Below, piece by piece: positions 11,775-55,565 of a DNA stretch of 64,000 nucleotides (position 1 is its first letter; each line of letters begins with the position of its first letter). Location: positions 32,001 through 96,000 of the forward strand of contig CAWJKT010000015.1 of the NCBI GenBank assembly GCA_963843375.1, written 5' to 3'. The notes under the pieces are model-generated. The model was not told the DNA's origin. It did not search any database and saw only the letters and a list, made by a program, of their open reading frames with translations. A program made the translations under genes and the position numbers. The stretch is from an uncultured Pseudomonadota bacterium. GTDB taxonomy: Bacteria; Oederibacteriota; Muellerivitia; Muellerivitales; Muellerivitaceae.

Positions 11775-12836
11775 ATGCCCCGTCCTAAAACTGCTTCCAA
11801 ACCATCTGTAAGCGACCCGACGGAAGAACTTCGCATGATGAATCCGAAAAAAAGTGGGGAGGAAGAGGAGCAAACTCTCCGGCCCCAACGTTTGGCCGAT
11901 TATGTGGGCCAATCAGCCCTCAAAGACTCCCTTTCAATCACCCTTTCAGCGGCACAAAAACGTAAAGAGGCACTGGAGCATCTATTGCTTTCGGGTCCGC
12001 CGGGACTAGGTAAAACCACTTTGGCTTCCATCATCGCAAAAGAAATGGGCGTAAATATCAAGACCACGTCAGGACCAGTCATTGAAAGGGCTGGTGACTT
12101 GGCCGCGCTTTTAACCAATCTCCAACCACATGATCTCTTGTTCATTGATGAAATACATCGGTTGCCCCGTGTGGTGGAAGAGGTGCTCTACCCCGCCATG
12201 GAAGATTTTGAGCTGGATATTATGATTGGAAAGGGACCTACGGCCCGAGCCATCCGACTTAGCCTGCCACCCTTTACGTTAGTGGGAGCAACAACCCGGT
12301 CGGGAAAGGTGAGCGCTCCTTTGAGAGACCGATTTGGGTTGTCGTTTCGTCTTGAGTTTTATACTCCGGAAGAATTGACCTCCATTGTAAAAAGATCGGC
12401 TCAGGTTCTGAAGATTGAGATTTCAAACGATGGAGCGGTGGAAATCGCTAAAAGGTCTCGTGGGACCCCGCGATTGGCAAATCGATTACTAAAGCGTGTT
12501 CGGGATTTTGCGGAAGTGAAACGCAAGGGCCACATTGACCATGAAGTTGCGGATTCGGCTTTGAAACTTTTGGAAGTCGATGGCTTGGGACTGGACCGGA
12601 TGGACAGGCGCATCCTTTCCTGTATCATAGAAAAGTTTTCAGGTGGGCCTGTGGGAATTGAAACACTTGCTATGGCGGTGGGGGAAGAGTCTGAGACTGT
12701 TGAAGATGTTTATGAATCCTATCTCGTGCAAATCGGATTTTTGCAACGAACCTCCAGTGGGCGAAAGGCTACGGTGTTGGCTTACAGGCATTTGGGTATA
12801 ACACCTCCTTCCCTCGCACAAGGTAACCTCTTGTGA
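11775..12836 (+). CDS. ruvB: Holliday junction branch migration helicase RuvB
   Basis: [34 protein letters not shown] motifs. Confidence 0.97.
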
Positions 12837-29346: not shown

Positions 29347-29362
29347 AACGAAAGAACTCAAA

Positions 29363-38752: not shown

Positions 38753-38793
38753 TGGTAAAACCATAAAATAATGGGTTTTTCCCCCTTTGAAAT

Positions 38794-38802: not shown

Positions 38803-38846
38803 GAAGTCGATGTTTCGACGCTTTTAAACGCTTTCTGGGAGATGGG

Positions 38847-41150
38847 ATGGACCTTCAGCAGCTCCTTTATTCCATGGTTGAAAAAAAGGCCTCCGATGTG
38901 CATATGAAGGCCGGTGCTCCTCCTCTTTTTCGTATTGATGGTGACTTGGCCCCCCAAAGCGAGAATCCCTTGACCCCCCAGGAACTAGCTGAAGTGGCTT
39001 CCTATCTCATGGATGAAAAACAACAAAGAACCTTTTTCGAAGAACATAAAGAAGTGGATTTGGCCTATGCCGTGGAAGGTTTGGCTCGATTCAGGACCAA
39101 TGCCATGTGGCAAAGGGGATTGCCTGAGATAATTATGCGCGTTATTCCACAGCGCATTCCGAAAATTGAAGATATTAATATGCCGACAGCGATTCTGAAA
39201 CAAATTGCCATGGAGCAACGGGGCCTAATTCTGGTGACCGGAATCACGGGATCGGGCAAATCCACTACTTTAGCATCCCTTATCAATGAAATGAACGTCA
39301 ACCGGGCGGCTCATATCGTCACGGTTGAAGATCCCATCGAGTTCGTCCATCCTGACAAAAAATCAAGCGTCACCCAGCGGGAAGTTGGTCTTGATACCGA
39401 GAGCTTCAAAACGGCCCTTAAATATGTTTTGCGGCAAGACCCAGATATCATTCTGATTGGGGAAATGCGCGATATTGAAACGGTTCAGGCCGCCATATCA
39501 GCCGCCGAAACGGGCCACTTGGTTTTATCGACCCTGCATACGATGGATACGATTCAAACGATCGAGCGTATTTTAGATTTTTTCCCTCCGGAACAACAAA
39601 ATCAAATTCGGGTCCAGCTTGCTGGAACCCTCCGGGCTGTTATTTCCCAACGATTAGTCAACAAGGCCGATGGTGTTGGGGTGGTGCCGGCTTGCGAAAT
39701 CATGATTGTGACCCAGACCATAAAATCCTTGATCGCCGAGGGCAAAATTTCATCCATCCGGCAATTTATCGCGGAAGGCCATAGTCAATATGGCATGCAA
39801 ACTTTCGATCAATCCTTGATTCAATTAGTTCGCGGGGGGTTCATCACGAAAGAAAACGCCATGGAGCAGGCGTCTTCTCCCAGTGAAATAGATTTGGGAT
39901 TAAAAGGCATCTCTTCTTCGAAAGCCTCGGCTCAGTCTCTCATTTCTCAAATGGAGAATGCCCAACAAAAAGACCGCGTCAATGGCTGGCTTAAAAAGGG
40001 GCAGGAATACTATGAAAAACGTCGTTACGATGAAGCAAGGGGTGAACTCAAACGAGTCCTTCAGGAAATTCCGGAGCATAAGGAAGCCAATGCCCTGATG
40101 GCTCGGTTGCGGGAGATGGATAATAAGAGCGAAAAGAAAAAGGACGCGTCCACCAACATCAAAACGGCTTTACAGCTTTACCGGGAGGGGAAGCATCAGG
40201 CGGCGATTTTGGAGTTTCAAAAAGCGCTGGAACTCGACCCGGAAAACAAACAAGCTCAGGGTTATATTAAGGCCATCCAGGAAGAACTGGATAACCGATC
40301 CAAGGCCCGTGAATTCTATCAGGCGGCTTTAAACGCCCAAAATCAAAATGATTTGGCGGGCGCTTTGTCCTATGTGGATCAAGCCCTGGTTCTTGATCCG
40401 GAAAACGAACAAGTCCAAGTTTTACAGCGGGACCTAAAAATATCCGTTCAAAAAGAACAGGCTCGATCCAAGGCTGATTCATTCAATCAAACAGCGATCG
40501 ATTTATACAAGTCGGGGGATTTGTTGAGCGCGTTGGTCGCTTGGAATAAAGCTTATGAGCTCAATTCCGAATTGGAAGATGTCGCCCGCTATCTTCAACA
40601 GGGAATCACCAAGCTTTTGTCATTTGGGGTGGATGGGTTGGATGCTAATCCAGAGAAACAGCTTATTTTAAACCTCTTCGAACAGGGAGTCCGCAGTTAT
40701 GTCCGTGGCGATTTTCAAACAGCTATGGACTTTTTCAAAAAAGCCATTTCCAAGGCCGATGGAAATAATTATTTAAACGCCTATCTTCAAAAGTCCGGCC
40801 AAATGTTGGAACAACAGATCGGCGAGTTCCTTCAAGACGGGATTCGTGCCCAACAATCCGGAGATTTGACTACCGCCCAAAAGGAATTCACGAAAGTCAT
40901 TCGGCTTTCCCCCGGACACCCTGAAGCCATTAAACAATTAGGGGCATTGAAGGTGACTATCCAGCAGAACATGGAAAAACTTTACGCCGATGGCAAACAA
41001 TATTTTGATGCCAATGACATGGACCGGGCCATTCGGATTTGGACCCAGATTTTAGACCTGGAGCCTTCAAATGAACGGGCTCAGAAGCGCATTGAAGAGG
41101 CGAAGATCAAAAAAAATACCTTAAGCGGAATATTTTCAAAAATCAGTTGA
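38847..41150 (+). CDS. pilT: PilT/PilU family type IV pilus retraction ATPase fused to ~400 aa of TPR repeats
   Basis: ASDVH, GITGSGKSTT, EDPIE, RQDPDIILIGEMRD, GHLVLSTLHT, GMQTFDQSL; then A...F.KALELDPEN-type TPRs in the same frame. Confidence 0.9.
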   Translation: MDLQQLLYSMVEKKASDVHMKAGAPPLFRIDGDLAPQSENPLTPQELAEVASYLMDEKQQRTFFEEHKEVDLAYAVEGLARFRTNAMWQRGLPEIIMRVIPQRIPKIEDINMPTAILKQIAMEQRGLILVTGITGSGKSTTLASLINEMNVNRAAHIVTVEDPIEFVHPDKKSSVTQREVGLDTESFKTALKYVLRQDPDIILIGEMRDIETVQAAISAAETGHLVLSTLHTMDTIQTIERILDFFPPEQQNQIRVQLAGTLRAVISQRLVNKADGVGVVPACEIMIVTQTIKSLIAEGKISSIRQFIAEGHSQYGMQTFDQSLIQLVRGGFITKENAMEQASSPSEIDLGLKGISSSKASAQSLISQMENAQQKDRVNGWLKKGQEYYEKRRYDEARGELKRVLQEIPEHKEANALMARLREMDNKSEKKKDASTNIKTALQLYREGKHQAAILEFQKALELDPENKQAQGYIKAIQEELDNRSKAREFYQAALNAQNQNDLAGALSYVDQALVLDPENEQVQVLQRDLKISVQKEQARSKADSFNQTAIDLYKSGDLLSALVAWNKAYELNSELEDVARYLQQGITKLLSFGVDGLDANPEKQLILNLFEQGVRSYVRGDFQTAMDFFKKAISKADGNNYLNAYLQKSGQMLEQQIGEFLQDGIRAQQSGDLTTAQKEFTKVIRLSPGHPEAIKQLGALKVTIQQNMEKLYADGKQYFDANDMDRAIRIWTQILDLEPSNERAQKRIEEAKIKKNTLSGIFSKIS

Positions 41151-41190
41151 TCTTACCTTGGCTGTTTTTGACTTTTAAAATTAAAAAGGG

Positions 41191-41604
41191 GTGGAAATGA
41201 AATTAATGATAGTGGGTGCTGGAGTTTTAATTCTGATTTTTATCGTTGTGCTGAACACGTCAATGGTCGCGGACCAAGCGTTATCTTGGGTTGCGGCCAA
41301 TCCAAAGGATCCTGGAGCCCCTGATGTTCTTTATCGCACGGCGCGGTGGTGCGATATGCTTGGTAGCGACGACAAGGCAGCATCCATATATTTACAATTG
41401 TACCAACAATATCCCGAGCGGGGGGACTTGTGTGCGCCCGCCCTTTATCATTTGGCGTACAATCTGGCGAATGGAACATATATTGTTGGAATCAAAAAAC
41501 AAGCCCTCCCTTATTTAGAAACGATCATGAACCAGTATTCGAGTCAAGACGAATGGTCGACTAAGGCAAAACAACTTTATGATGAGGTGAATTATGCCCA
41601 TTAA
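41191..41604 (+). CDS. Small membrane-anchored helical-repeat (TPR/YbgF-like) protein
   Basis: N-terminal hydrophobic segment; APDVLYR, LYQQYP and APALYHLA TPR-like pattern. Confidence 0.55.
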   Translation: MEMKLMIVGAGVLILIFIVVLNTSMVADQALSWVAANPKDPGAPDVLYRTARWCDMLGSDDKAASIYLQLYQQYPERGDLCAPALYHLAYNLANGTYIVGIKKQALPYLETIMNQYSSQDEWSTKAKQLYDEVNYAH

Positions 41605-42643
41605 GCTTGGCCGGACTGCGGAATGTTTGATTTTAATGTCGGCTATTTTTGCATTAGGAATTGGGTGCCGTTTGTGGGCGGCAACGGTAGAGGTGGAAAA
41701 TGAGGATGATGATATTTCCGTGATTCCCACGCCTGCGCCAAAGGCAATGAATCCCCAAGTGACTCCATCGAACGATAAAGGGGTTGATGCGGATATTGAA
41801 TTACAGGGCGAAGAAAAAGAAGTTTTGCCATCGCCAACACCCGTAAAAAAACCAGAGGTGGATACACCAACTCCGAGCGTTGTTGCAAATGAAAGCCAAG
41901 TGAAAAAAAATGAACAGTCGAATTCTATCGAATCGACCTTACCTCGGGTTCGGATCAATGATAATGTTGGTTTTTATTATTTTGTTTCCGCCGGTTTCAT
42001 GATTTCAGATAACGCCCAAATGCACTCCATAGGTAAAGTGATCGGGAACGCCGATACCAGCCTTAATTTCAGCATGCCCAAGAGAACTTATATTGAGTTG
42101 GCATCAGATCATTATGAAGTTAGGCCTGATGACTTATTAGTTGTTTTTCATTCGGTGCCGGCGTTTCATGATTCGCATTCCACATTTCCTGCATACCAAA
42201 TCGAAAATCTAGCCATTGTCAAAGTCATCGAAATTCAGAAAAGACGTGTGCTGGTTGAAGTAAAGGAATCTTTCCGGACTTTTCAGGACGGGGACTTAGT
42301 GGAGACTTATGAAAATGAGATTAAAAGATGGAAACAGGCTCAAATTAAAAAAGTCCTTCCTTCGCACCCCGTTAAATGTTTTGTAATGGGGGGGGAGTTA
42401 AGCCGCCAAAATTACGAACAAACAGATTTTATTTTTCTTTCCGCTGGCTCAAAAGCTGGTGTTGTGGAAGGCCAAAAATTTGAACTACGGGAAATTGACA
42501 ACACTGGTGCTATGGAAGAGCCTCTTCATGCGCTGCGAGGCGTCGCCCAAGTTATTTCTGCAGGACTAAGGTGCTCCACGGCACAAATCATTAGCAATAG
42601 TGAATCCATTAAAAAAGGTTTTGAAGCCGTTTACCAACCTTAG
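41594..42643 (+). CDS. Exported protein with an acidic/PTP linker and tandem FlgT-C/TsaP-like beta domains
   Basis: Signal peptide; TYIEL...DLLVVF...AIVKVIE..GDLV and DFIFLSAGSKAGVVEGQKF...GVAQVI...STAQII patterns. Confidence 0.55.
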   Translation: MPIKLGRTAECLILMSAIFALGIGCRLWAATVEVENEDDDISVIPTPAPKAMNPQVTPSNDKGVDADIELQGEEKEVLPSPTPVKKPEVDTPTPSVVANESQVKKNEQSNSIESTLPRVRINDNVGFYYFVSAGFMISDNAQMHSIGKVIGNADTSLNFSMPKRTYIELASDHYEVRPDDLLVVFHSVPAFHDSHSTFPAYQIENLAIVKVIEIQKRRVLVEVKESFRTFQDGDLVETYENEIKRWKQAQIKKVLPSHPVKCFVMGGELSRQNYEQTDFIFLSAGSKAGVVEGQKFELREIDNTGAMEEPLHALRGVAQVISAGLRCSTAQIISNSESIKKGFEAVYQP

Positions 42644-42673
42644 GAGGTTTTCGGACCCCGAGAGGAATCTCTC

Positions 42674-43531
42674 ATGACTGTGATGATAGAGGAAGATCAG
42701 AGTTTTAAAAAAATATTGGCTTTTCTTTTGCGCTCAAAAGGTTTCGACGGTAATCACTATAAAACTAATTACATCAAACGTCGAATCGCGGTTCGAATGA
42801 GGGTGGTCGGAGCTTCAACCTATACCGACTATTTAAAAATCCTCCAACATAACCTTGAAGAACCAGCCAGACTTCTGGACCGCCTGACAATCCACGTAAC
42901 AGAATTTTTTCGTGATCCGAGTGTTTATAAAGCGGTCCAAGAAAAAGTACTTCCCGGTTTTTTGGGAAAAGCAGGAAAAAAAATGAAAGTATGGTGCGCT
43001 GGCTGCAGTACCGGTGAGGAGCCCTATTCACTTGCGGGGCTGTTGAACGAATGGGTTTCTTCGAATCCGGAGTACTCTTTTCAAATATTTGCTACGGACA
43101 TTGACCTAAAAAGCATCAGCTTCGCTGAAAAAGGGGAGTATTCACGTGAGTCCTTGGTAAAGGTGCCCAAAGGGGGGCTGACCCGTTGGTTTCGTTCCGA
43201 TGGAACAAAGGTCTCAGTTTCATTTGAATTGAAGAATCATGTTCGATTCAGGGTACATGATTTGCTTGGGAAATGGATGGCAAGTTTGTCCGATTTCGAC
43301 CTCATCTTTTGCCGGAATCTTTTAATCTACCTTACTGGAAAACAACAACAAAAAATTTATGAACAGTTTTCAAACGCCCTAAATCCCCAAGGGTATCTTG
43401 TGCTAGGGCTTACGGAAACCCTTCTGGGGCCCGCTCGGAAATATTTCCATTGCGTGGATGTTAAACATCGTATTTATCAAACCCTGGATTCAAGCGGTGA
43501 ATTGGATTTGGAAAAGGATGCGAATGGATAA
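42674..43531 (+). CDS. cheR: Chemotaxis protein methyltransferase CheR
   Basis: TEFFRD, WCAGCSTGEEPYSLA, ATDID, FCRNLLIY. Confidence 0.95.
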   Translation: MTVMIEEDQSFKKILAFLLRSKGFDGNHYKTNYIKRRIAVRMRVVGASTYTDYLKILQHNLEEPARLLDRLTIHVTEFFRDPSVYKAVQEKVLPGFLGKAGKKMKVWCAGCSTGEEPYSLAGLLNEWVSSNPEYSFQIFATDIDLKSISFAEKGEYSRESLVKVPKGGLTRWFRSDGTKVSVSFELKNHVRFRVHDLLGKWMASLSDFDLIFCRNLLIYLTGKQQQKIYEQFSNALNPQGYLVLGLTETLLGPARKYFHCVDVKHRIYQTLDSSGELDLEKDANG

Positions 43532-44696
43532 GGCACAAGAACACATCAATTTGGGGACGGCTTTTTCCCTTTCGCGTCGATTCGATGACGCCATCATTGA
43601 GTTCAAAAGAGCGTTGGAACTGAGTCCTTCTGACGCTGAGATACTTTTTCAATTGGGGGGACTCAGCACGAATGTTGGAAATTATGGGGAGGCGGAAAAT
43701 TATTACCGCCGCTCGCTTGAAATAAATCAAATGAATCTAAACGCACATTGCAAGCTGGGACTCCTTTTGGAAGTTCAGGGGAAATATCAGGAAGCTATTT
43801 TGGCGTTTCAGAAATCGGTTGAATTAAATCCTCTTGATGTCGGCCTTTACAATAACCTCGGAAATGTCTATTCCAAAATGGGGAAATACCAGGAGGCGAT
43901 TGGACAATACCAGAAATATATTGTTATCAATAAAAGTAACGCTGAGATTTACTTCAAATTGGGATATGCCTATGAACAAGCCGGTCAGTTGGAGGAGGCG
44001 ATTTCTTCTTACGAACGGGCTTTGATTACGAATCCGCGGCACGCCGCGGTTTACGCTATTTTGGGAAACGTTTATTTAAAAACCGGGAAATACAATGAGG
44101 CGATCGTTCAATACCATCAGGCCGTGAAATTTAACCCTAACGAACCGGAAGTTCATCTTAAACTCGGCCAAGCCTATATGTCACTTGGTCAATACGAAAA
44201 GGCGTTGGAGATTTTGAATCAGGCAAAAATAAAAAATCCCAACAACGCTGAAGTCTATTTGAAATTAGGAATGATTTACGCAAGTCGGGGTCAACATGAT
44301 GAGGCCATTCAAATGTATAGAAAAGTTATGGAAATCAACCCTAATGATGCAAGCGTTCACAATGTTTTGGGGTATATTTATGACAAGCAGGGCGACCTTC
44401 AGCGGGCTCGGGATGAGTATAAAGCCGCCAAGTTAATTAATCCAAACGATGTTCAGATTTTGGACAATTTAGGAAATTTGAGTTACAAACAGGGGAATTT
44501 TGACGAAGCGGTTGTCGAGTTTGAAAAACTGATAACTTTGAATCCTTCTCACCTGGACGCTCAGGCCAAACTGGGAAACATTTACATGAAAAAGGGCGAA
44601 AAAGAAAAAGCCATAGCTCATTGGGAGAAAGCATTGATACTCGATCCTTCGAATGATATTTTAAAAAATAATTTGAAAATTGTGCGAGGGAACTAA
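43524..44696 (+). CDS. Cytoplasmic all-TPR protein (~11 repeats)
   Basis: Regular 34-aa YNNLG.VY..MGKY.EAI repeats; no signal peptide; overlaps the end of cheR. Confidence 0.9.
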   Translation: MDKAQEHINLGTAFSLSRRFDDAIIEFKRALELSPSDAEILFQLGGLSTNVGNYGEAENYYRRSLEINQMNLNAHCKLGLLLEVQGKYQEAILAFQKSVELNPLDVGLYNNLGNVYSKMGKYQEAIGQYQKYIVINKSNAEIYFKLGYAYEQAGQLEEAISSYERALITNPRHAAVYAILGNVYLKTGKYNEAIVQYHQAVKFNPNEPEVHLKLGQAYMSLGQYEKALEILNQAKIKNPNNAEVYLKLGMIYASRGQHDEAIQMYRKVMEINPNDASVHNVLGYIYDKQGDLQRARDEYKAAKLINPNDVQILDNLGNLSYKQGNFDEAVVEFEKLITLNPSHLDAQAKLGNIYMKKGEKEKAIAHWEKALILDPSNDILKNNLKIVRGN

Positions 44697-44699
44697 TTT

Positions 44700-45338
44700 A
44701 TGATGAAACCGCAAGAAAAATCATTGGGTGAGCTTCTTCGCCAAGCGGGAAAAATCACTTTTCGTCAAATTCAAGTGGCGTTAGGCGAACAAAAAAAAAC
44801 CCATGAACCGATTGGGAAAATTCTGATAAAGCTGGGTTTTGTCGAGGAACAAGACATATTGCAAGTCATGCAAGGGATGATGGTTTTGACCTTTCGTGTG
44901 GAAAAAGAATGGTATGGAATTGAAACATTTCGGGTTCGTGAAGTTTTAAAATACTCACCATTTCAATTGTTGGAAAATCCGAATGGGTCCTGGGTGGGAA
45001 CACTTTCTTTGCGAGGGAAAACTATTTCTGTTTTATCTTTTCGAACTTTTCTGGAAATGGGACAAGTTCAAAGTCCTGAGGGAACTTGGTTTATTGTTTT
45101 GGAAAAGAAAGGGAATCCATTTGTATTGTGGGTTGATCAGGTGAAAGAAGTCACGAGGTTTAAAATAGAACAAATTGAACCCTTGCCGCCTTATTTATTG
45201 GGTAAAAAAAACGACTTATATTATTGTTTGGGTAAAATAAAAGACGATCTTTATTCAATCTTAAATCCAGACAAATTAATCGACGATAACGGCGTTTTAC
45301 TGCCATCGTCAGGGGTTGGTTATGCCTACCCGACCTGA
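44700..45338 (+). CDS. MshEN (GSPII_N)-CheW fusion protein
   Basis: Two 24-aa MshEN-type motifs with a 5-aa linker (SLGELL..AGKI....I...L..Q-KKTHE-PIGKIL..LGFV), then CheW (YGIE..RVREV, GTLSLRG, WVDQVKEV). Confidence 0.8.
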   Translation: MMKPQEKSLGELLRQAGKITFRQIQVALGEQKKTHEPIGKILIKLGFVEEQDILQVMQGMMVLTFRVEKEWYGIETFRVREVLKYSPFQLLENPNGSWVGTLSLRGKTISVLSFRTFLEMGQVQSPEGTWFIVLEKKGNPFVLWVDQVKEVTRFKIEQIEPLPPYLLGKKNDLYYCLGKIKDDLYSILNPDKLIDDNGVLLPSSGVGYAYPT

Positions 45339-47535
45339 AACTAAAACTATCCGTGAACTTGCCCATGGAAGCGATCAAGGGGACGCTTCTACTCACAATA
45401 ATTTGGGCGTATTTTATTATTCCAAAGGGATGTATGCCGAGGCCATAAAAGAATTTAAAACGGCTTTGGAAGTGGATCCGGAAAACAATCAAGCGCAAGA
45501 AAACTTGAAGGCCGTGAACCGTCATACAGGGCTTTATGATAGGTCGATCGAGGCTTACAAAAAATCAGTCCAAATGTTTCCCCAGGATGCCGAGGCTTAT
45601 TACAATCTGGCCAATGCATATCGTTATACCGGTCAATATGAAAAGGCCATCGAGGAGTATCGAAAGTCGCTCCAATTAAATCCGGACCATCCTTTTGCCA
45701 GGAATTATTTGGGGATTGCTAACAAATGCTTAGGCAGGTTTGATGAAGCACTGGCCGAATTTCGAAAGGCCATTGAAAAAAATCCTTTTTTTGCCGACCT
45801 TCATAATAATTTGGGCGAGGTTTATTATAAAAAAACTATGATCAACGAGGCATTGATCGAGTTTAAAAAAGCTATTTCCCTAAATCCTGATTATGCCATT
45901 GCCCATTACAATTTAAGTTTTGTTTATGGCGACAAAAATATGCTTCAAGAAGCGGAACGAGAATTCAAAAAAGCCGTAGATTTGAATCCGAATTTTGGTC
46001 AAGGATCACAGGCACTTTTGGCTATTGAACGCCCTAAAACCTTGGAAGAAAGGGTAGCGGAGAAAGTCGCAGCAAATCCCGCCGAACACAATGGAGTCGA
46101 TACTTATTTGAGCTTAGCTTCCGCATATAAAGGAAAGGGGTTATTGGACGAGGCTATTCGGGAATATAAACGGGCCATCGAGGCCGTTCCTGGACAAGAA
46201 AAACTTTATCGCGCCTTAGGAGAAATATATCTTGTTAAAGGGATGTTGGAGGACTCCTTAGCGGCTTCCCAAAAAGCCATCGAATTGGCTCCCAAGAATG
46301 TTGAAAACTATATTCAAACAGGGATTGCTTTAAGAGAACTTAATCGAACGGACCAAGCCGCAAAACAGTTTCTAACGGCCATACAAATATCACCTGGATC
46401 TAGTATGGGCCATTTTGAACTGGGAGTGACCTACTTTAAAATGGGTGAAAGTGAAAAGGCGACCCAACAGGTGCGGGAAGCATTGGAAATCGATCCTCAA
46501 AATGCCGAAGCCCATTATTATCTTGGAGTTTATTACTACAAAGTGAATTTATATGACGAAGCCATTCGTGAAATTTCACAAGCCATTGATTTAAATGTTT
46601 CTATCGCATCCAGCGCTGAAGCGTTGACCTATCTGGGATTGGCTTTATCCGATAAGGGACGGTTTGAGGAAGCGATCGCGGAATATAAAAAAGCGATGGA
46701 GTTTGACCCCAAAAATCCGATAATTCACAATAGCTTAGGAGTTGCTTACAAGAATGCAGGTATGATTCAAGAATCCATTGCACATTACCAAAAGGCCATT
46801 GAACTTAACCCCCAATACGCAAAAGCCTACAATAATTTAGGCGTTGTTTACTTTAAAATGAGCCAATACGAGAGGGCCATTGAAGCATTCAAAAAAGCGG
46901 TTGAAATTGAACCGCTTTATAAAACAGCGCAAAATAATTTGGCCGTTGCCCTGAAAAAGAAGAATGTCCTGTCGGAAGCATCGGAAGTTCTTATTAAACA
47001 AATTATGGCGGATCCCGAAAACGCTTCTCTCCATTTCAATTTAGGAATTCTTTATAAGAATACTGGGCAGTTTTTGGAGGCCGTTAGGGAATTTCAAGAA
47101 ACGGTTCGATTAGTTCCGAAGAATCGTGAGGCTCTTACAAATTTAGGTGAAGTTTATTTGAACTTGGAAATGTTGGATGATGCCATAAAGGTTTTGGCAC
47201 GCGCAGTGTCCTGTGATGTTCAATTTCCGGAAGCTCATTTACAACTGGGCAAGGTCTACATTCGGCGCAAATGGTGGGACGAGGCGCTAGTTGAACTTAG
47301 AAAAGCAGAGGAGCTTAAACCGGAATTGAATGAGGTTCATTTTTATTTGGGGCAGGTGTATAGGTTTAAAAGTTGGTGGGATGAAGCGGTTGTCGAGTTT
47401 CAGAAATATATGGACTCCCATAGCCCTGAAGAAGATAAGGTGATTCAATCGATTGACATGCTTCAACAGATACAAGTTTGGAAAAGAGAACTACAGATTT
47501 CTCCCAGCGCCGATAAATCGAAATTGATTAAATAG
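45322..47535 (+). CDS. Large cytoplasmic all-TPR protein (~20 repeats)
   Basis: Continuous HNNLG/YYNLA/HFELG TPR repeats; overlaps the end of MshEN-CheW. Confidence 0.9.
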   Translation: MPTRPETKTIRELAHGSDQGDASTHNNLGVFYYSKGMYAEAIKEFKTALEVDPENNQAQENLKAVNRHTGLYDRSIEAYKKSVQMFPQDAEAYYNLANAYRYTGQYEKAIEEYRKSLQLNPDHPFARNYLGIANKCLGRFDEALAEFRKAIEKNPFFADLHNNLGEVYYKKTMINEALIEFKKAISLNPDYAIAHYNLSFVYGDKNMLQEAEREFKKAVDLNPNFGQGSQALLAIERPKTLEERVAEKVAANPAEHNGVDTYLSLASAYKGKGLLDEAIREYKRAIEAVPGQEKLYRALGEIYLVKGMLEDSLAASQKAIELAPKNVENYIQTGIALRELNRTDQAAKQFLTAIQISPGSSMGHFELGVTYFKMGESEKATQQVREALEIDPQNAEAHYYLGVYYYKVNLYDEAIREISQAIDLNVSIASSAEALTYLGLALSDKGRFEEAIAEYKKAMEFDPKNPIIHNSLGVAYKNAGMIQESIAHYQKAIELNPQYAKAYNNLGVVYFKMSQYERAIEAFKKAVEIEPLYKTAQNNLAVALKKKNVLSEASEVLIKQIMADPENASLHFNLGILYKNTGQFLEAVREFQETVRLVPKNREALTNLGEVYLNLEMLDDAIKVLARAVSCDVQFPEAHLQLGKVYIRRKWWDEALVELRKAEELKPELNEVHFYLGQVYRFKSWWDEAVVEFQKYMDSHSPEEDKVIQSIDMLQQIQVWKRELQISPSADKSKLIK

Positions 47536-47546
47536 TAAGGATATTC

Positions 47547-47885
47547 ATGAAATTGCTTGTTTGTATTATTTCGCCCAAAAAAATTGAACAAGTTAAAAAG
47601 ACTTTATGGGAAGCTGGAGTTCGAGGAGTAACCTTGTCGGAGGGGTATGGTTTTGGATATCAAAGGGTTCAGGTAGAAGCGATAAAAGGGGCGGATTATA
47701 AAGTCCAATACCAGCCGAGAATACGTGTTGAAATTGCATTGCCTAATAATGAAGTTGAAAAAGTGCTTGAACTGCTTTTGGAAACAGTCCGGACGGGTCG
47801 AATTGGAGATGGAAAATTCTTTATCTTACCTCTTGAGGATGCGATTCGTGTTCGCACGGGTGAACGGGGCGAAGGTACTCTTTAA
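47547..47885 (+). CDS. P-II family signal transduction protein (divergent GlnB/GlnK-like)
   Basis: 112 aa, colinear with GlnB; GFG.Q, T-loop Y51, TGRIGDGK B-loop, IRVRTGERG C-loop. Confidence 0.92.
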   Translation: MKLLVCIISPKKIEQVKKTLWEAGVRGVTLSEGYGFGYQRVQVEAIKGADYKVQYQPRIRVEIALPNNEVEKVLELLLETVRTGRIGDGKFFILPLEDAIRVRTGERGEGTL

Positions 47886-48003
47886 TAGGTTTTTATTGAT
47901 TGGCATAAAGCTTAAAATTTAAAAAGGTTTTCATTTTTCAACAAAACAATTAACATCAGTTTGGATCGGAACTACAAATTTATTCGTTTTTAGGGAGGGT
48001 GAA

Positions 48004-48366
48004 GTGGCACATCGAGTTATGCTCGTTGATGATGCGTCTTTCATGAGAATGATGCTGAAAAACATTCTTGTGGGATCCGGATATGAAATTATTGGTGAGG
48101 CTGAAAACGGGGCCAAAGCGGTTGAACAATATAAGAGCCTGAAACCGGATTTAACAATCATGGATATTATCATGCCTGAAATGGGTGGTATTGATGCGGT
48201 ACGGGAAATTGTAAAAATAAATCCTTCCGCAAAAATTCTAATGTGTAGCTCCATGGGTCAACAATCATTAGTGGTGGAAGCAATTCAAGCTGGGGCCAAA
48301 GATTTTATTGTCAAACCTTTTCAACCATCCAACGTATTGGAGGCTGTTAAAAAGGCATTGGGTTAA
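48004..48366 (+). CDS. cheY: CheY-like response regulator
   Basis: VDDASFMR, MDIIMPEM, SSMGQQ, AKDFIVKPF. Confidence 0.93.
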   Translation: MAHRVMLVDDASFMRMMLKNILVGSGYEIIGEAENGAKAVEQYKSLKPDLTIMDIIMPEMGGIDAVREIVKINPSAKILMCSSMGQQSLVVEAIQAGAKDFIVKPFQPSNVLEAVKKALG

Positions 48367-48414
48367 ACCTAAAGCACTTTAAAGTCTATTCGGTTAAACA
48401 AAGTGGGTGGCGCG

Positions 48415-49054
48415 ATGGGAATAGAATCTGAAATTTTCAGTGATTTTCAATTGGATGCTTTGCGGGAAATCGGAAATGTTGGAGCCGGAAACGCCGCCAC
48501 TGCTCTTTCTCAAATGGTCGGGCGCCGAGTCGATATGTCGGTAACAAAGGTTTTGGTTTTGCCAACCGATGGCATTGCGGGTTTTTTAGGCGGGTTGGAT
48601 CAAAATGTGGCTGCGGTTCATATGCCCATCTATGGAGAAGTTTGCGGTATTTCCCTTGTGTTCTTTCCACTGGATAGAATCAATGAGCTTTGTGGGATGT
48701 TGATCGGAAAAGTAGAAAAAGATCCATTCCATTTGTCCGAATTGGGCCAATCCGCCATTAAGGAACTTGGAAGCATACTAACGGGTTCCTATTTAAGCGC
48801 TTTGTTCAGGTTTGTCCATATTCAAATGATCCATGGTGTTCCTGGGCTTGGCGTTAGATATGGCGCAAGCCGTGCTTGATACGGTTTTGGTGGAATTAGA
48901 GCAAAAAGAAGAAATCGCCATCGTGATTGAAACAGAATTTCTTGAAAATGAAAAACAATTAACAGGTAGTTTTTTCCTTTTGCCGGAAGCCGGGTCTTTG
49001 AAAAAATTGTTTATTGCTTTTTCAAAATCACTTGGAATTCCTGGGAATGCCTGA
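48415..49054 (+). CDS. cheC: CheC phosphatase (one frameshift near 48845)
   Basis: DALREIGNVGAGNAATALSQM; continues LALDMAQAVL..IETEF..FFLLP in ORF 48833. Confidence 0.88.
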
Positions 49055-49533
49055 AGAAAACTGGATTGTTGGCATCGCGGAATATAAGGTAACCCACAGC
49101 CCAAACAGGCTAGTGGCTTATGGTCTGGGTTCTTGCGTGGGGGCTATACTTTGCGATCTCCAGGCTAAAGTTGGCGGGTTGGCTCATATCATGCTTCCCT
49201 CAAGCCGTCTTTATGTTCAGACGGAATTTCCTGGTAAGTTTGCCGATACTGCGATTGACATGTTAGTAAATGAGATGGAAAAATTGGGGAGCTGTCCAAA
49301 AAATATTTTCTCCAAAATTGTTGGTGGCGCAAATATGTTTTCTTCGATCTCGCAAAATTCAGTTCCGATTGGGTTGCGTAACGTTTCTGCTGTTCGTGAA
49401 AAGTTGCAGCAGCGAAACATCCCTATTTTGGCCGAACAAGTGGGGGGGACCCAGGGAAGAACAGTCTTATTTGATATTGAGACCGGAAAGAGTTGAAATA
49501 CGGAAATTAAATCAATTTTCGGAATGGATTTGA
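49047..49533 (+). CDS. cheD: CheD chemoreceptor glutamine deamidase (frameshift near the 3' end)
   Basis: GLGSCVG, AHIMLP, KFADTA, GGANMF, IGLRN, GG.QGRT. Confidence 0.92.
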
Positions 49534-49546
49534 TCGGAAGTGTGAA

Positions 49547-50079
49547 TTGAGTGTTTCGTTATCGGAAGTATCTAATAGTTTCCAGGTTAGCGATGAATTC
49601 CAATGGGTTGTTTTCTGCATAGCTGGATCCGAGATGAGTGTTGGGATCAGTCATGTTCGGGAAATAATCCGTGTGGGCGAAATAACTCGAATGCCAAGGG
49701 CTCCCAAATTTTTGGAAGGAATCATCAATCTGCGAGGACGTATTATCCCCGTTTTAGACTTGAAAAGACGTTTTAATATGCCACTTGTGGATTCGACAAG
49801 TGAATCACGGATATTAGTAGTTGAAATTGAAGACCAAATGTTAGGTCTTTTAGTGGATAAGATTTTAGAAGTCATAAAAGTTTCTGTCGCAAATGTCGCT
49901 CCGCCAAAAGAGACGACATTGAATATCGGCCCCGAGTATCATAAATGGAGTGCTGACTTTGGATCGTCGAAAAATTCTTATTTTTGAACTTGCTGAAGCT
50001 TTTTGTATTTGAGGATATGAAATTATTTTCGGATTCTGAGGCGGGTTCTTTTGGGGAGGGAAAAACCATTGGCCATTAA
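49547..50079 (+). CDS. cheW: CheW coupling protein (frameshifts near 49940-49985; end approximate)
   Basis: VREII, P.AP.F.EGIINLRGRIIPVLDL, GLLVD. Confidence 0.9.
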
Positions 50080-50434
50080 AGTATTATTCGTGGATGATTC
50101 TTCTTTCATGAGAACTGTTCTGAAAGGGATTATTCTAAAAGACCCTTTTGAACTTGCAGGAGAGGCTGGAACCGGTAAAGATGCCGTGGATCTTTATAAG
50201 AAGTTAAAACCTGATCTCGTCACCATGGATATCGTGATGCCGGAAATGAACGGTATAGACGCCGTAAAAGAGATTCGACTCTTTGACTCGCAAGCGAAAA
50301 TCATTATGGTAAGTGCGATGGGGCAACAGAATATGGTGATTGATTCTATACAGGCAGGTGCCAGGGATTTCATAATTAAACCCTTTCAGCCACCGCGCGT
50401 CCACGAAGCTTTGAAGCGGGTAATTGGTATTTAA
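50069..50434 (+). CDS. cheY: Second CheY-like response regulator
   Basis: VDDSSFMR, TMDIVMPEM, SAMGQQ, FIIKPF. Confidence 0.92.
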   Translation: MAIKVLFVDDSSFMRTVLKGIILKDPFELAGEAGTGKDAVDLYKKLKPDLVTMDIVMPEMNGIDAVKEIRLFDSQAKIIMVSAMGQQNMVIDSIQAGARDFIIKPFQPPRVHEALKRVIGI

Positions 50435-50464
50435 GATGTATATATCAGGCCTTAGGAATTCTTT

Positions 50465-51577
50465 ATGATGCCTGAAAAATCCTCCACCATTAAAGTTTTG
50501 GTCGTCGATGACTCCTACTTCATGCGAAAAATGCTTCAGGATATCTTGGCGGATTCAAGCGATGTTATCCGTGTAGTGGACACCGCTAAAAACGGTTTGG
50601 AGGCAATTGAAAAGACTAAAAAATTAAAACCTGATGTTATTACCATGGATGTCGAAATGCCTCGGATGGATGGTTTGGTGGCTCTTGAAAAGATTATGCG
50701 GGAACGACCGACCCCAGTGATCATGCTCTCGAGCCACACAGGAAAAGGTAGCGAAGCCACTATTCGGGCGCTGGAATTAGGAGCCGTTGATTTTATCGAA
50801 AAGCCGGTCGGCAGGATCTTGGAAAATGTTCGGGACATTCAAGGTGAATTGATTGAGAAAATTAAGATGGCGTCCCTAAGCAGGCCAAGATACTTTCCTC
50901 CATCGAGTCCAGAAGTTGAAACTAAAAGTTCAATAAAAAACCGTCCGCAGGTGAGCGGGGCTTCATCAAACGGTATCAAAAGTGAAAATCGGGCGACTTT
51001 TATTGTTGCAATCGCCTCGTCGACGGGCGGTCCCCGCGCACTGAACGAGCTTTTTTCTCGAATAACTGGAAATTCAACTTCGGCTTTCGTAATTGTGCAA
51101 CATATATCCGTTGGATTTACCAAGGCTTTAGCCCGAAGGTTAGGGGAAGTGAGCCCATTAGTATTTTCAGAAGCAATAGAAAATGGTTACTTGAAAGCAG
51201 GATGTGTTTATCTCGCGCCTGGGGGATGTCATCTCGTTTTAGAGGGGTTGCCCGGCAATTTTCGATTTGCCTTTGACGACTCTCCTCCCCGTTTAGGCGT
51301 CAAGCCCTCGGCGGATATTACAATGGCCTCCGTGGCAAAGGTTGCTCCAAAAAAATGTTTGGGAGTTGTTTTAACAGGAATGGGCCGGGATGGAACTATT
51401 GGTTTAAAAAGTATACGAGCTGTTGGTGGAAAAACGTTTGCTCAAGATGCAGAGAGTTGTGTTGTCTATGGCATGCCTAAATCTGCGATGGATGCCAAAG
51501 TGATAGATCGACAATTGCCAATAGCCGCAATTGCGGCTGAAATCAATGCCTTTTTAAGCCACCAAATTGAACTCTAG
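50465..51577 (+). CDS. cheB: CheB methylesterase (REC plus esterase domain)
   Basis: TMDVEMP, ASSTGGP, VQH, LTGMGRDG, VYGMP. Confidence 0.95.
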   Translation: MMPEKSSTIKVLVVDDSYFMRKMLQDILADSSDVIRVVDTAKNGLEAIEKTKKLKPDVITMDVEMPRMDGLVALEKIMRERPTPVIMLSSHTGKGSEATIRALELGAVDFIEKPVGRILENVRDIQGELIEKIKMASLSRPRYFPPSSPEVETKSSIKNRPQVSGASSNGIKSENRATFIVAIASSTGGPRALNELFSRITGNSTSAFVIVQHISVGFTKALARRLGEVSPLVFSEAIENGYLKAGCVYLAPGGCHLVLEGLPGNFRFAFDDSPPRLGVKPSADITMASVAKVAPKKCLGVVLTGMGRDGTIGLKSIRAVGGKTFAQDAESCVVYGMPKSAMDAKVIDRQLPIAAIAAEINAFLSHQIEL

Positions 51578-51649
51578 TGACGGAATGTCATAACCAATGG
51601 TTTAAAATACATAAGGTGATTTGGACTTTGTTATTGACGGGAGCTTTTA

Positions 51650-53745
51650 GTGAACATCGGAGATTATAAAGATGCTTTTTTGACGGAAGCCCGCGAGTAC
51701 TTATCGACACTTAATAATTCCTTGGTTTTGTTGGAAAAAAATCAAACTCAAACCGACGCCATTAATGATATTTTCCGAGCGGCTCATACACTTAAGGGGA
51801 TGGCCGCGACGATGGGTTACGATCCAATGGTGCGGTTGACACACCAAATGGAAACACTTTTGGAACCGATTCGTTCCGGGACTCAAAATCCTTTCTACCC
51901 GAATGGTAGATGTCCTGTTTGTTTGTTTGGATCAGTTGGAAAAATGGTTGGAAATTTTAATGACGCAAGATTTTATTGAGGAAGAAAGCCTTCAAACGGT
52001 TCTTCAATTGCTCTATTCGGTTTGGGATGACCAATCTAATTCAGATGTTTCCGGGATCGATTCTTTTACCCCCGAAATCGAAATTCCACTACTTTTCTCG
52101 GAATCGGAAAATGAAATATTGTCCCAAGCTAAGATAAATGGCTTTTCTATCTTTAAAATTATCAATCCAATTAGTCCCGGATTGTAATTTCAAAGAAGTT
52201 CGAGCTTTCATGATCCTAAAAAACATAAATGTGTTTGGCGAAATTGTTCAAAAGCCGTCCTATTCCCGAAGAAATTGAAAAGGGACATTTTATGGACCGG
52301 TTTATATTAGTTGTTGTGACTGATTGGAAACCTGAAAAAATCAAAGAATCGCTTTTGAATGTTGGAGAGGTTATCGATGTTAGAGTCGAGGACTTTGTGC
52401 CCAGAATCTTCTTCGGCTCCATTTACTGGGAATGAGGAAGTTTTGGGGCTGAATTCGAAAACGATTTCTCTTTCTCCGCCGAGTCAGTCGGTGGCCCCGG
52501 AAGAGCGGAAGATTATTTTACCTACCATCCGTGTCCATACCTCGAAATTAGATAAATTAATGGCATTGGTTCAGGAATTGGTAATTTCGAAAATTCGCTT
52601 TGAACAAGTTGCTACCTCCAAAGCATTGAAAGAGTTGTCGGACCCGCTTTCACAACTAAATCACATTACCGACGAACTTCAGGACGAAATTATGAAGGTT
52701 CGTCTGATGCCCGTGAAACAAATTTTCGAAAGATTTCCGAGGATGATTCGGGACTTGGCCAAAAATTTGAATAAACAAGTTGATTTGGAAATGGATGGAG
52801 CGGAAGTTGAATTAGATAGGACAGTACTAGAGGAAATGAGCGAACCACTTGTTCATCTTTTAAGAAACGCGGTTGACCATGGGATAGAAGAACCCGAAAT
52901 AAGGACCAAAGAAGGGAAGGAACCCTATGGGACCATCCGGCTTCAGGCTAAACGCGAGAGATCTTATGTTGTTATTTCCATTTCGGATGACGGTCGGGGG
53001 GTTGATCCGGATATTATTCGACAAAAATCTATTGAAAAAGGACTTGTGACCCCTGACGATGCGGCAAAACTAACAGATGAAGAGGTGATTCGTTTGATTG
53101 CCTTACCTGGCTTTTCAACCGTTGAAAATGCTACTGAAATATCTGGCCGAGGTGTTGGGGTTGATGTGGCCAAAACAAAAGTTGAAATACTTAGGCGGAA
53201 CTTTTCGGATTCTAAGCAAAAAAGGACATGGAACCACATTTATTTTGAAATTTCCGCTTACTTTGGCAATTATTAAGGCACTTTTAGTCAAGTGTAACCA
53301 GGAAATATTTGCCATGCCTGTTGTCAATATCATTGAAACGCTCGATGTTTTTCCAGCGGAGAAAAAATTGATTCAACAACAAGAAACTATTATTTTGAGG
53401 GGAGATGTTATACCCCTTTATCCACTTCAGGAACTACTGGATTTGCCCATTCCCGATGTTAGTTACATAACTGGACTGGAGACTGTTCTGGTGGTTGAGG
53501 TGGGGGAATCAAGAGTGGGATTGCGGGTGGATGAGGTAATTGCCCAACAAGAGATAGCCATTAAATCCCTAGATCGAATTTTAAAAGGCATACGTGGTTT
53601 TTCGGGCGCAACTATTCTGGGGAATGGTAAGATAGCGCTCATATTGGATGTGAATAGTTTGATCGAAGATTTAAAGGACAAGCGTTTTCAGGTTGAACAT
53701 CCTCTTTTTAGTAAGGAAGACGTTAATGCTTCTCAATCTCGATGA
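51650..53745 (+). CDS. cheA: CheA histidine kinase (P1-P2-P3-P4-P5), split by several frameshifts
   Basis: IFRAAHTLKGM (P1), VRAFMI (P2), HLLRNAVDHGIE, DDGRG, PGFST..SGRGVG.DV, GATILGNG..ALILDV across ORFs 51650, 51903, 52229, 52359 and 53098. Confidence 0.92.
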
Positions 53746-54340
53746 ATTAAATCCAGCTCAACTGGATGCGATAAAAGAAGTTGGAAATATTGGAGCGGGG
53801 CACGGTGCGACAGCCCTTTCTCAGCTTTTAGGGAAAAGAATCTTAATCACTGTTCCTAAAGCAAACATCATTCCCTTATCAGAGATTCCGAGCTTAGTGG
53901 GGGATCCAAATACCCTGGTAGCGGGGCTTACTTTGTCTATTTTGGGGGATGCAACAGGAAAAATTATTCTTTTGTTTCCAAGGGATTCAGCGCTTCATCT
54001 TGCGGACATGCTTTTAAAACAACCGATCGGTTCCAGCAAAATTCTAACCGAAATGGGACATTCGGCCATTAAGGAAGCTGGAAATATTCTAACCGGAGCT
54101 TACTTAAGTGCTTTAAATGAATTTTTGGGAATGTTACTCCTTATTTCAGTTCCAACTTTAGTTTTTGACATGGCGGGTGCCCTTTTGGCTACTGTCACTC
54201 AAGGGTTGGAAGATGCGACAAAAGTTATTTCGATTGAAACACGATTCATTGATGACAACAAAGAAATAGGCGGTTATTTTATTTTGGTTCCAGATGCGGT
54301 TTCGTTACGTGCTATTTTTCAAGCAATCAAGGTTAAGTGA
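53726..54340 (+). CDS. cheC: Second CheC phosphatase
   Basis: DAIKEVGNIGAG and SAIKEAGNILTGAYL, both ExxN sites present. Confidence 0.92.
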   Translation: MLLNLDELNPAQLDAIKEVGNIGAGHGATALSQLLGKRILITVPKANIIPLSEIPSLVGDPNTLVAGLTLSILGDATGKIILLFPRDSALHLADMLLKQPIGSSKILTEMGHSAIKEAGNILTGAYLSALNEFLGMLLLISVPTLVFDMAGALLATVTQGLEDATKVISIETRFIDDNKEIGGYFILVPDAVSLRAIFQAIKVK

Positions 54341-54466
54341 GATTTATTGTTAGTTTTTTGCGGTTTTGAATAAGCCTTTATTTGCGCCTTTCTGATATTT
54401 AATAAGACCGTGTTAATATAATGCCATTAAATTCTATGTTTGCTATCAGCTTGAATAAGAGGTTTT

Positions 54467-55565
54467 GTGAGTTCCGACACCACCCTAATTGAAAAACTCA
54501 TTTCACGTTGTGTCAAACCCGCCAATTCATCAATCAAATCTAGTTGCATGCTGTAAAGATATTCTGGAAAACTTCAAATTTGACTGTGTTTTTTTGGCTC
54601 GCGCTTCCAATGCCGAAGAACCCCTTTCGATAGTGGCATTAGATGGTAAGGAAGAAGTAATGGATACCTGCCTTTATCGGTTGGGGGTGGAGGAGCGAAA
54701 TGCACTTTCCAAACTTCCGCTAAAAACCTATTTGGATATAACTGGAAAACCTGTTTTCAATAAATCCGGGTCTCTTCGCATTCAAAAACCCAACAGCGGC
54801 GTGTTTATGGTATTGAACCGGGCAAAAAAAAATTATTTGTTATTTGGATGTGCTCATCAGAATTCGCAAGCTTATGATCATAAAACGCTGGAGGAGCTTT
54901 CCGCACTTTGGAAGCTGTGGCAGGAACCGTTGGAAAGAGCCGTTCTGCAAGTGTCCGAAACGGGGAAAAAGGACGGGGGAATTGATAATTCAAAGAATGA
55001 AACTGTTGTTGAAGAAAAACCGGGTTTCACTTTAATTAATTCAGTTACAACGCCCCAATCCCCTGAACTTAATCGAGATGGACGTCGCCCGATAGTCCTG
55101 GTGGATGAAGTGACTCGTCTTTTTAATAAAGAATATTTTGCCGAATGTCTTTCAATTGAGGTTGAAAGGGCGAAAAGATATTCCCGCTTGATGAGCCTTA
55201 TGTTTCTAAGCGTTTCACCTGTTGATGGCGTTTCAAGCAAACTGGATAAAAATCTAGTGGCGACACAAGTCGCTGAAATTCTTTCCAAGAGTCTTCGCCG
55301 GGTAGATGTAATCTGTCGGTTAGATCAAAATAAATACGGAATAATTCTTCCGGACACGGCGAATAACACGTATGGAATTATTGCGAAAAGAATTTTTAAA
55401 TTCTTCAAGCTAATTATGGGAGACGCGTCTCCTGTGTTTCTTAATATCAGTGCTTCTACTTATCCAAAGCATGCCGCGGACCATCATAGTCTTCTTGAGA
55501 ATGCTGAAAAACTTTTGGCTCAAGCGCAAGAGGTTGGGCCGAACAAAGCTGTTCTACCGGAATGA
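54467..55565 (+). CDS. Degenerate GGDEF-domain protein with N-terminal GAF-like region (true start probably GTG 54467, one-base shift before 54489)
   Basis: DEVTRLFNKEYF, ERAKRY, SLRRVDVICRLDQNKYGIILPDT, GPNK. Confidence 0.75.

Follow-up and report, generated by a model that had tools for sequence, protein, structure and literature searches.

Within a 64-kb stretch of DNA from an uncultured soil bacterium of candidate phylum FCPU426 (the window, by which we mean the whole stretch of 64,000 nucleotides that was analysed), the genes from CheR to CheC2 appear, judging from their content and order in relatives, to be the main chemosensory operon of the phylum. The cluster is a variant of known chemosensory systems and not a new kind of system: an F1-like chemotaxis core that also holds genes for two tetratricopeptide repeat (TPR) proteins, a CheW with an N-terminal MshEN-type module, and a P-II signalling protein. 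We favour the reading that the operon encodes a pathway for motility control whose outputs are the flagellum and a second machine, probably the pilus, and put its chances at about even. To our knowledge, chemotaxis pathways are well understood, and their intake of metabolic and cyclic di-GMP (c-di-GMP) state is known only from a few unrelated add-ons. The source assembly (G000) has 32 contigs and is 80% complete; below, genomes, contigs, loci and families carry the prefixes G, C, L and f. The genes under discussion, including one methyl-accepting chemotaxis protein (MCP) encoded at a distance, are the following.

38847..41150, + strand: PilT-family ATPase with TPR repeats (PilT-TPR; 767 aa, ~400 aa of them TPR); T2SSE 1.5e-49 at residues 3-275, and TPR families.
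41191..41604, + strand: small, presumably membrane-anchored protein, its N-terminus marked by a hydrophobic segment; a single weak TPR-like match (TPR_6 1.7e-5, under the cut-off).
41594..42643, + strand: TsaP-like exported protein (349 aa) with no Pfam family, assigned from its predicted structure and fold comparison.
42674..43531, + strand: CheR methyltransferase, which opens the conserved che block (CheR 1e-53, CheR_N 2.5e-12).
43524..44696, + strand: TPR390 (~390 aa), 11 repeats (TPR families); start at 43524 taken from alignment with the G001 orthologue.
44700..45338, + strand: MshEN-type CheW (212 aa); CheW 2e-24 at residues 62-196, N-terminal module at residues 1-60.
45316..47535, + strand: TPR739 (739 aa), up to 15 repeats (TPR families).
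47547..47885, + strand: P-II, GlnB/GlnK-type (P-II 1.8e-22).
48004..48366, + strand: CheY1 (Response_reg 1.8e-30).
48403..49051, + strand: CheC1, with one extra base near 48843-48847 (CheC 2e-17; the G001 CheC1 aligns in two frames).
49014..49533, + strand: CheD, its end shifted by an extra base at 49487 (CheD 1e-30).
49547..50035, + strand: CheW2; extra bases near 49938 and 49977-49980 displace its end, which is therefore approximate (CheW 7.4e-31, profile positions 1-103 only).
50051..50434, + strand: CheY2 (Response_reg 1.3e-28).
50465..51577, + strand: CheB, receiver plus methylesterase (CheB_methylest 4.9e-55, Response_reg 5.7e-26).
51650..53745, + strand: CheA (P1-P2-P3-P4-P5), split in the record; pieces with Hpt, H-kinase_dim, HATPase_c and CheW, read in three frames.
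53726..54340, + strand: CheC2 (CheC 1.1e-23, CheX 1.5e-10), 95% identical to the G001 CheC2 from 53726.
54489..55565, + strand: protein with a GAF-like and a degenerate GGDEF domain (GGDEF 4.3e-14).
12833..14101, + strand: MCP with HAMP and signalling domain (MCPsignal 1.4e-45).

The operon is recognised above all by its conservation. We took 20 loci downstream of PilT-TPR orthologues and found the full order from PilT-TPR to the GGDEF gene in nine loci of family f1, in one further f1 locus cut by a contig end, and in one f2 locus. Two f3 loci carry a variant that reads PilT-TPR, two small genes, CheR, TPR, MshEN-CheW, P-II, CheY, CheC, CheD and an MCP, and then CheW, CheY, CheB, CheA and CheC; this version is without TPR739 and the GGDEF gene, and its P-II gene overlaps that of MshEN-CheW. 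An 11-gene block, CheR-TPR-MshEN-CheW-TPR739-P-II-CheY-CheC-CheD-CheW-CheY-CheB, is ordered alike in f8 (G037, and G031, whose first TPR gene is cut by the end of the stretch), in f7 (G030) and in f10 (G036, G057, G062, G064 and G066, the CheR of G064 being cut off by a contig end). The four inserted genes (TPR390, MshEN-CheW, TPR739 and P-II) keep a constant order across FCPU426, with TPR739 missing from f3. Conservation of the gene set, which the original prediction of a pilus-linked chemosensory cluster had asked for, was thereby borne out for the che block with its extra genes in f1, f2, f3, f7, f8 and f10. As to the synteny of pilT, P-II and MshEN-CheW with che genes, on which that prediction had staked itself, P-II and MshEN-CheW are syntenic with them and pilT is separable. 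Literature searches, with subscription journals outside their scope, found no account of the cluster, no chemosensory operon with P-II and no stand-alone MshEN-CheW.

Listing of open reading frames (ORFs) and Pfam searches placed every gene that had been named from the letters alone on the + strand between 38847 and 55565, and each Pfam-recognisable domain was recovered. The labels "MshEN", "TsaP-like" and "dead GGDEF" likewise held, by a profile against PDB sequences, a fold match and a motif read in 10 of 10 orthologues, respectively. The ORF listing gives intergenic gaps of mostly 0-40 nt, or overlaps, across the run. Shared orientation is weak evidence here, because the + strand carries almost all genes between 5.9 and 64 kb. 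A consensus scan of 37500-56500 returned 30 promoter-like and 26 terminator-like sites, where shuffled sequence led us to expect 35.4 and 22.8; with counts so near to those of shuffles, the scan is silent on operon boundaries.

The core comprises CheR, two CheW, two CheY, two CheC, CheD, CheB and a CheA with a P2 domain. In the same-genus genome G001 the CheA orthologue is intact (698 aa), and Pfam finds in it Hpt, P2, H-kinase_dim, HATPase_c and CheW, the full P1-P5 series; in the window the P2 stretch can be read across three frames. The G001 orthologue of CheW2 has 162 aa and a full CheW domain. The best solved relatives of CheA are chains of 1B3Q and 3JA6 (E ~1e-104), which we take to be Thermotoga CheA. 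Together with the two CheC genes and the one CheD gene encoded in the core, these features uphold the F1-type assignment made earlier and suggest an F1-like core resembling the systems of Thermotoga and Bacillus. The F1 class of the Wuichet and Zhulin classification reportedly includes the chemotaxis systems of Thermotoga maritima and Bacillus subtilis, and the cluster shares with these a CheA with P1-P5 including P2, CheW, CheY, CheB, CheR, CheC and CheD. Unlike them, it adds the TPR, MshEN-CheW, TPR and P-II genes and, in the window's family, the degenerate GGDEF protein; it has two CheY and two CheC genes and, in the window's family, no MCP within the cluster; and it persists in relatives without FliM and FlhA. 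With the Pil-Chp (Tfp) class it may have in common that type IV pili are under its control. The CheA of that class has several Hpt domains and a C-terminal receiver, whereas the cluster CheA, as read from the G001 orthologue, has one Hpt, a P2 and no C-terminal receiver. Elsewhere in the genome, a second chemosensory cluster on contig C16 (L003:10710-16677) encodes a CheX-like protein, a CheA without P2, a TarH-type MCP, a CheY and a 258-aa receiver protein; this second CheA carries a 170-aa N-terminal extension, and PilZ and STAS genes lie upstream of its cluster.

As recorded, the operon contains nine coding breaks within 4.4 kb, in cheC1, cheD, cheW2 and cheA, and the 10 kb upstream are without any. 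Such packing speaks for a decaying, non-functional cluster in which the frameshifts of cheC, cheD, cheW and cheA are real. Each break, however, is a single extra base relative to G001 and stands beside a short A, T or G run; the extra bases are at 48847, 49487, 49938, 49980, 51885, 52164, 52250, 52404 and 53191. Full read-through of CheA needs five frame changes, with extras near 51885-51889, 52151-52164, 52244-52250, 52404 and 53188-53191, and in relatives the cluster CheA is a single open frame of 685-752 aa. We aligned Logan contigs from four public runs of two studies (X1-X4; depths 2.3-7.5) to positions 48200-54400; X1 may be the source sample of the assembly. Wherever the contigs of X1-X4 gave coverage, the extra bases were missing, except in X3 at 52250, and the extra base of CheC1 was missing from the contigs of X1, X3 and X4. 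Essential or conserved genes elsewhere in the same assembly are broken alike, among them FliG, FliF, FliI, MotB, SecF and ProC, and in the window the valyl-tRNA synthetase gene (29243-32028) is split into three overlapping ORFs, a further sign of single-base errors. The frame breaks are assembly errors, and the operon is intact, because the nine extra bases are missing from G001 and from independent public contigs. A cluster killed by real frameshifts, against which the original prediction had guarded itself, is excluded by the Logan contigs without the extra bases, and we consider decay exceedingly improbable.

What sets the cluster apart from F1 systems is the insert, and within it the CheW carrying the MshEN-type module. 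A profile built from the first 62 residues of 14 orthologues and searched against PDB sequences matched c-di-GMP-binding domains, namely those of Thermus PilF (5.8e-10) and V. cholerae MshE 5HTL (6.4e-10), and PilB N-termini as well; Pfam did not report T2SSE_N/MshEN for this N-terminus, even at E up to 10. In the available part of Wang et al. 2016 (PMC5013675), MshEN is described as two 24-residue motifs joined by a 5-residue spacer, with large effects at hydrophobic positions and under five-fold effects at charged ones. The same layout is in register in the cluster CheW (residues 8-31, spacer 32-36, residues 37-60), consistent with the four-helix module. As in the domains of MshE 5HTL and T. 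thermophilus PilF, the two half-motifs, the spacer and the conserved Leu/Ile, Gly and first Gln (Gln31) are kept. Unlike in those domains, the leading Arg of the motifs is replaced by Ser8 and Pro37 and the second closing Gln by Met60, so that the Arg/Gln signature is incomplete and Pfam is blind to the domain. The altered residues are identical in all six families read, including f3, f7, f8 and f10. Because the hydrophobic positions are kept and, in what is available of PMC5013675, charged ones matter less than five-fold, c-di-GMP binding by MshEN-CheW is plausible, if uncertain. The fusions listed in the available text and supplement of PMC5013675 include MshEN with CheA and with CheX; unlike these, the module here sits on a stand-alone CheW.

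MshEN-CheW, with its N-terminus, was matched in 65 of the 99 phylum genomes (profile, 1e-22). In an alignment search, 26 of 80 loci were near-full-length, and the 14 of them with a named lineage were all "candidate division FCPU426"; the remaining 54 matched mainly the MshEN part. ORF length, viewed for 14 of these 54, was 185-1135 aa and mostly 490-640, and since those 14 were judged by ORF length alone, restriction of the fusion to the phylum is not established. Among the 100 matches listed by a homologous-protein search, nearly all were at least 54% identical, and all were either named plain CheW or unnamed, with no distant forms.

The P-II protein looks canonical. It scores 80 bits against a Pfam cut-off of 25 and aligns over its whole length with GlnB/GlnK proteins of solved structure, best with 2EG1 (2.8e-31). 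The aligned pairs GADY/GTEY, TGRIGDGK/TGRVGDGK and IRVRTGERGE/IRIRTGERGE cover the T-loop Tyr, the B-loop TGxxGDGK and the C-terminal RxRTGE, which we take to be functional sites. In all, eight P-II genes of the genome pass the cut-off, the cluster copy among them; others lie on contigs C29, C8 and C3, three of them in tandem on C29 and two inside open frames of 423 and 659 aa, possible fusions. A predicted complex of three P-II chains with MshEN-CheW scored 0.00, which says nothing either way. Of the TPR proteins, TPR390 directly follows CheR in f1, f2, f3, f7, f8 and f10, and TPR739 stands between MshEN-CheW and P-II in f1, f2, f7, f8 and f10 and is absent in f3. CheR-TPR fusions are familiar as FrzF of Myxococcus and WspC of Pseudomonas; the cluster resembles them in that a TPR protein is tied to CheR as the next gene in every version, and differs in that CheR and TPR390 are separate genes.

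The GGDEF protein occurs only in the f1 and f2 versions of the cluster, after CheC2. In 10 of 10 orthologues its active-site motif reads DQNKY, EKNKY or similar, and its RxxD is invariant; the closest fold to that of its model belongs to the GAF-GGDEF cyclase Dcsbis 4ZMU (E 7e-12), and phytochrome-GGDEF cyclases match as well. A GGDEF fold with the active site lost and RxxD kept, behind a GAF-like domain, likens it to the degenerate-GGDEF c-di-GMP receptors PelD and PopA and makes it a candidate for c-di-GMP binding. Unlike PelD and PopA, the cluster protein is soluble, encoded after CheC2 and restricted to f1/f2. In f3, f7 and f10 a large PilM/FtsA-like protein (725-870 aa; L040:14528-16702, L134:15691-18300 and L136:10874-13477) follows CheC2 where f1 has the degenerate GGDEF protein, the f3 copy with a weak ThiS-like end. 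The candidate inputs proposed earlier are accordingly present as genes, with two putative c-di-GMP modules (MshEN-CheW and the degenerate GGDEF protein) and a canonical-looking P-II; as judged from these motifs and matches, c-di-GMP and P-II inputs are plausible.

Which machine the pathway serves was approached by searching all 99 sampled phylum genomes for FliM, FHIPEP (FlhA), MshEN-CheW, PilM and PilT-TPR. FliM was found in 62 of 99 (threshold 1e-15), FHIPEP in 69 of 99 (1e-20), and PilM in 86 of 99, including 58 of 60 high-quality genomes (1e-25). The window genome itself has a flagellar cluster with FliE, FlgC, FliF, FliG, FliH, FliI, FliJ, MotA, MotB, FliL, FliM, FliN, FliO and FliP, plus FlhA. 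The earlier statement that flagellar genes are missing was right for the 64-kb window, in which there are none, and does not carry over to the genome; the premise of a genome without flagella is thus not supported. The cluster CheA is the sole CheA found in several flagellated relatives. The statement that there is no MCP fares similarly, standing for the cluster itself and failing for the window, which has one 25 kb upstream of the cluster, and for the genome, which has four. Over 406 aa the window MCP is 37% identical to the f3 MCP encoded between CheD and CheW, and it is a probable receptor of the pathway.

An ordinary flagellar F1 operon would account for much of this. In the window genome it would steer the flagellum alone, its extra genes would tune adaptation, its function would have changed later in the flagellum-less families, and its pilus-type neighbours would be coincidental. 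The F1-like content with P2, CheC and CheD fits such an operon, as do the proximity of CheA to the 1B3Q/3JA6 chains, the full flagellar cluster of the window genome, the separability of PilT-TPR from the che block, and the finding that six flagellated relatives (G002, G009, G011, G025, G026 and G033) have no H-kinase_dim match besides the cluster CheA. However, seven genomes that are 89-100% complete (G030, G060 and G062-G066) give no match to FliM (1e-15) or FHIPEP (1e-20), yet encode full-length MshEN-CheW with a second CheW ~4.6 kb away. In the four of them in which the block was read (G030, G062, G064 and G066), the order of the 11 genes is unchanged, and their identity to G001 is 30-64%; the other three show the two CheW genes. 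Such retention is hard to explain unless a non-flagellar output pre-existed, and the block has been lost several times in flagellated lineages. We rate a purely flagellar role of this kind in the window genome rather unlikely. Because flagellum-less relatives keep the block, the system is not purely flagellar across the phylum, and a non-flagellar output, as the original prediction had it, is likely somewhere in FCPU426.

All four combinations of flagella and che block occur in the phylum. Flagellated genomes without any match to the CheA dimerisation domain are G013 (99% complete), G029 (a single contig), G028, G035, G032 and G038; the flagellated genomes without a CheA match take in the two sampled members of f5 and the two of f9. 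G022 was considered as a flagellum-less f1 genome with the cluster and rejected, having three rod/hook-type matches at 93% completeness. G036 and G057 have the block plus a divergent FHIPEP, which may belong to another type III system, and G036 also has a weak FliM-like match at a looser threshold. The divergent FHIPEP class (E ~1e-243 to 1e-250) was seen in G036, G057, G058, G061 and G054-G056, with second copies in G037 and G091-G093; a weak FliM-like match lies close to it in G036, G037, G061 and G091-G093, and the class may represent either another set of flagellar genes or a type III system that is not flagellar.

A link to pili was sought by the original prediction in the three genes that precede CheR. 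It read the pathway as one that acts through PilT-TPR and serves only surface behaviour or the retraction of type IV pili, with flagella outside its control. The first of the trio is a PilT-family ATPase by its T2SSE core and its visible GSGKST, acidic Walker B stretch and TGH...T..HT, although at 767 aa with ~400 aa of TPR it is not the usual single-domain protein of ~350 aa. The small TPR gene follows PilT-TPR in 13 of 20 loci. For the TsaP-like protein, an AlphaFold2 model (pLDDT 76.8) consists of a signal-like helix and a low-confidence disordered linker (residues ~1-120) followed by a part (residues ~121-347) that matched TsaP 6VE2_O with a Foldseek E-value of 2.1e-4 and a VIA Z of 13.7 (rmsd 3.9, 211 of 225 residues aligned); the second match was a flagellar LPHT-ring chain, with Z 10.3 over 86 residues. 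The model thus predicts the C-terminal two-barrel (FlgT-like) fold of TsaP, the secretin-associated protein of type IVa pili (6VE2 chain O). The defining feature of TsaP is an N-terminal LysM peptidoglycan-binding domain. No LysM was found in the cluster protein (no Pfam family at E up to 10), which also differs from TsaP in its 11% identity and in lying beside PilT-TPR instead of pilQ.

A pathway centred on PilT-TPR gains from the adjacency and tight spacing of PilT-TPR to CheC2 in f1, f2 and f3, from the TsaP-like partner, and from the retention of the block without flagella and the presence of flagella without any CheA in several lineages. It gains further from G030 and G036, where an orthologous CheA (with P2) and CheC stand apart from the block, followed by the ~870-aa PilM/FtsA-like protein and dprA, a few genes from aroE-pilT-pilM-(N)-O-pilQ. 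The distribution of the trio tells another story. Full-length PilT-TPR orthologues occur in ~58 of the 99 genomes (1e-100, TPR coverage required), but the fusion was not found in the flagellum-less, che-bearing f10 (0/11) or G030 (0/1), and it is present in f5, f6, f9 and g13, all of which lack the che block. In the two g13 loci the trio is directly followed by dprA and topA; in L037 and L051 it stays where the che block is deleted; five loci of f5, f6 and f8 have PilT-TPR without adjacent che genes; and in f8 the full che block, extra genes included, is on other contigs than PilT-TPR. The window genome also has a canonical pilT-pilC-pilM cluster on contig C1. Since each occurs without the other in relatives, trio and che block are separable: the trio is a separate pilus-type module, by chance adjacent to the che block in three families, and the idea, first proposed, that pilT belongs to the system is not supported. 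A PilT-centred pathway is, in our estimate, distinctly unlikely.

The PilT-TPR fusion tracks flagella and not the che block, occurring in 15 of 17 families with canonical FliM or FlhA and in none of the six without canonical FliM (f4, f7, f10, f11, f12 and f13), and also in f5, f6 and f9, which are flagellated and have no che block. A module tied to flagella is conceivable, but the families are related to one another, and the fusion has no flagellar genes as neighbours.

We return to a motility-control pathway with two outputs as the best explanation. Four lineage-specific genes would have been inserted into an F1-like core and then held in fixed order. MCP arrays, with receptors encoded elsewhere and one in the window, would activate CheA, which would phosphorylate both CheYs and CheB, and CheC and CheD would provide Bacillus-type adaptation and dephosphorylation. 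The accessory proteins would act at the receptor array: MshEN-CheW would replace or join CheW2 there according to c-di-GMP, the degenerate GGDEF protein would sense c-di-GMP, P-II would report ATP/ADP/2-oxoglutarate status, and the TPR proteins would serve as docking platforms, TPR390 for CheR by analogy with CheR-TPR fusions. One output would be the flagellar switch in flagellated members such as the window genome, and the other a target outside the flagellum, most likely the machinery of type IV pili. The second target is proposed because it alone can explain the retention of the operon in flagellum-less relatives. A stronger form of the model, in which an F1-type array is wired to internal state (P-II for energy, carbon and nitrogen, MshEN-CheW and GGDEF for c-di-GMP, TPR proteins as platforms) and drives pili besides or instead of flagella, is tentative and somewhat improbable. 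The probability left after the two-output, flagellar, PilT-centred and decay readings goes to other outputs.

Several observations weigh against a pathway with a flagellar and a pilus output. The MshEN module is a consistent variant with three signature residues changed, which makes c-di-GMP binding uncertain. Flagella in the phylum do not need the pathway, as the flagellated lineages without CheA demonstrate. Between 10 flagellated genomes lacking the che block (G042 had no readable start) and 10 carrying it, the LSxxExxALL-type peptide at the FliM N-terminus shows equal conservation, so coupling is not indicated. The pilus link consists of neighbourhood and of near-universal pili, which cannot discriminate. 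Both CheYs are kept in flagellum-less genomes, counter to a model of one CheY per output. Finally, since the families are related to one another, few loss events may underlie the phyletic pattern.

The cluster offers a fixed four-gene insert in a classical operon, kept phylum-wide across ~30-64% protein identity and including P-II, for which the literature searches found no chemosensory role. Because the insert is conserved and contains P-II, a link of P-II or c-di-GMP to the receptor array can be tested with purified proteins. The phyletic pattern is in addition a natural experiment on the function of an F1-type pathway without a flagellum. Should an array wired to internal state indeed drive pili, it would provide the first case of P-II at work within a chemotaxis pathway and, among bacteria, the first F1-type system that acts on pili.

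Two observations concern the flanks. In relatives dprA lies between the cluster and topA, where the window has a 480-bp AT-rich gap (55566-56046); dprA was absent from all contigs of the 80%-complete window assembly by tblastn. Directly upstream of PilT-TPR (34662-38752) are a TMEM260-like GT-C glycosyltransferase (PF11028, 1.1e-20) and a 781-aa TPR protein, and the glycosyltransferase lies upstream in 16 of 21 f1/f2 loci and in none of the 8 from other families.

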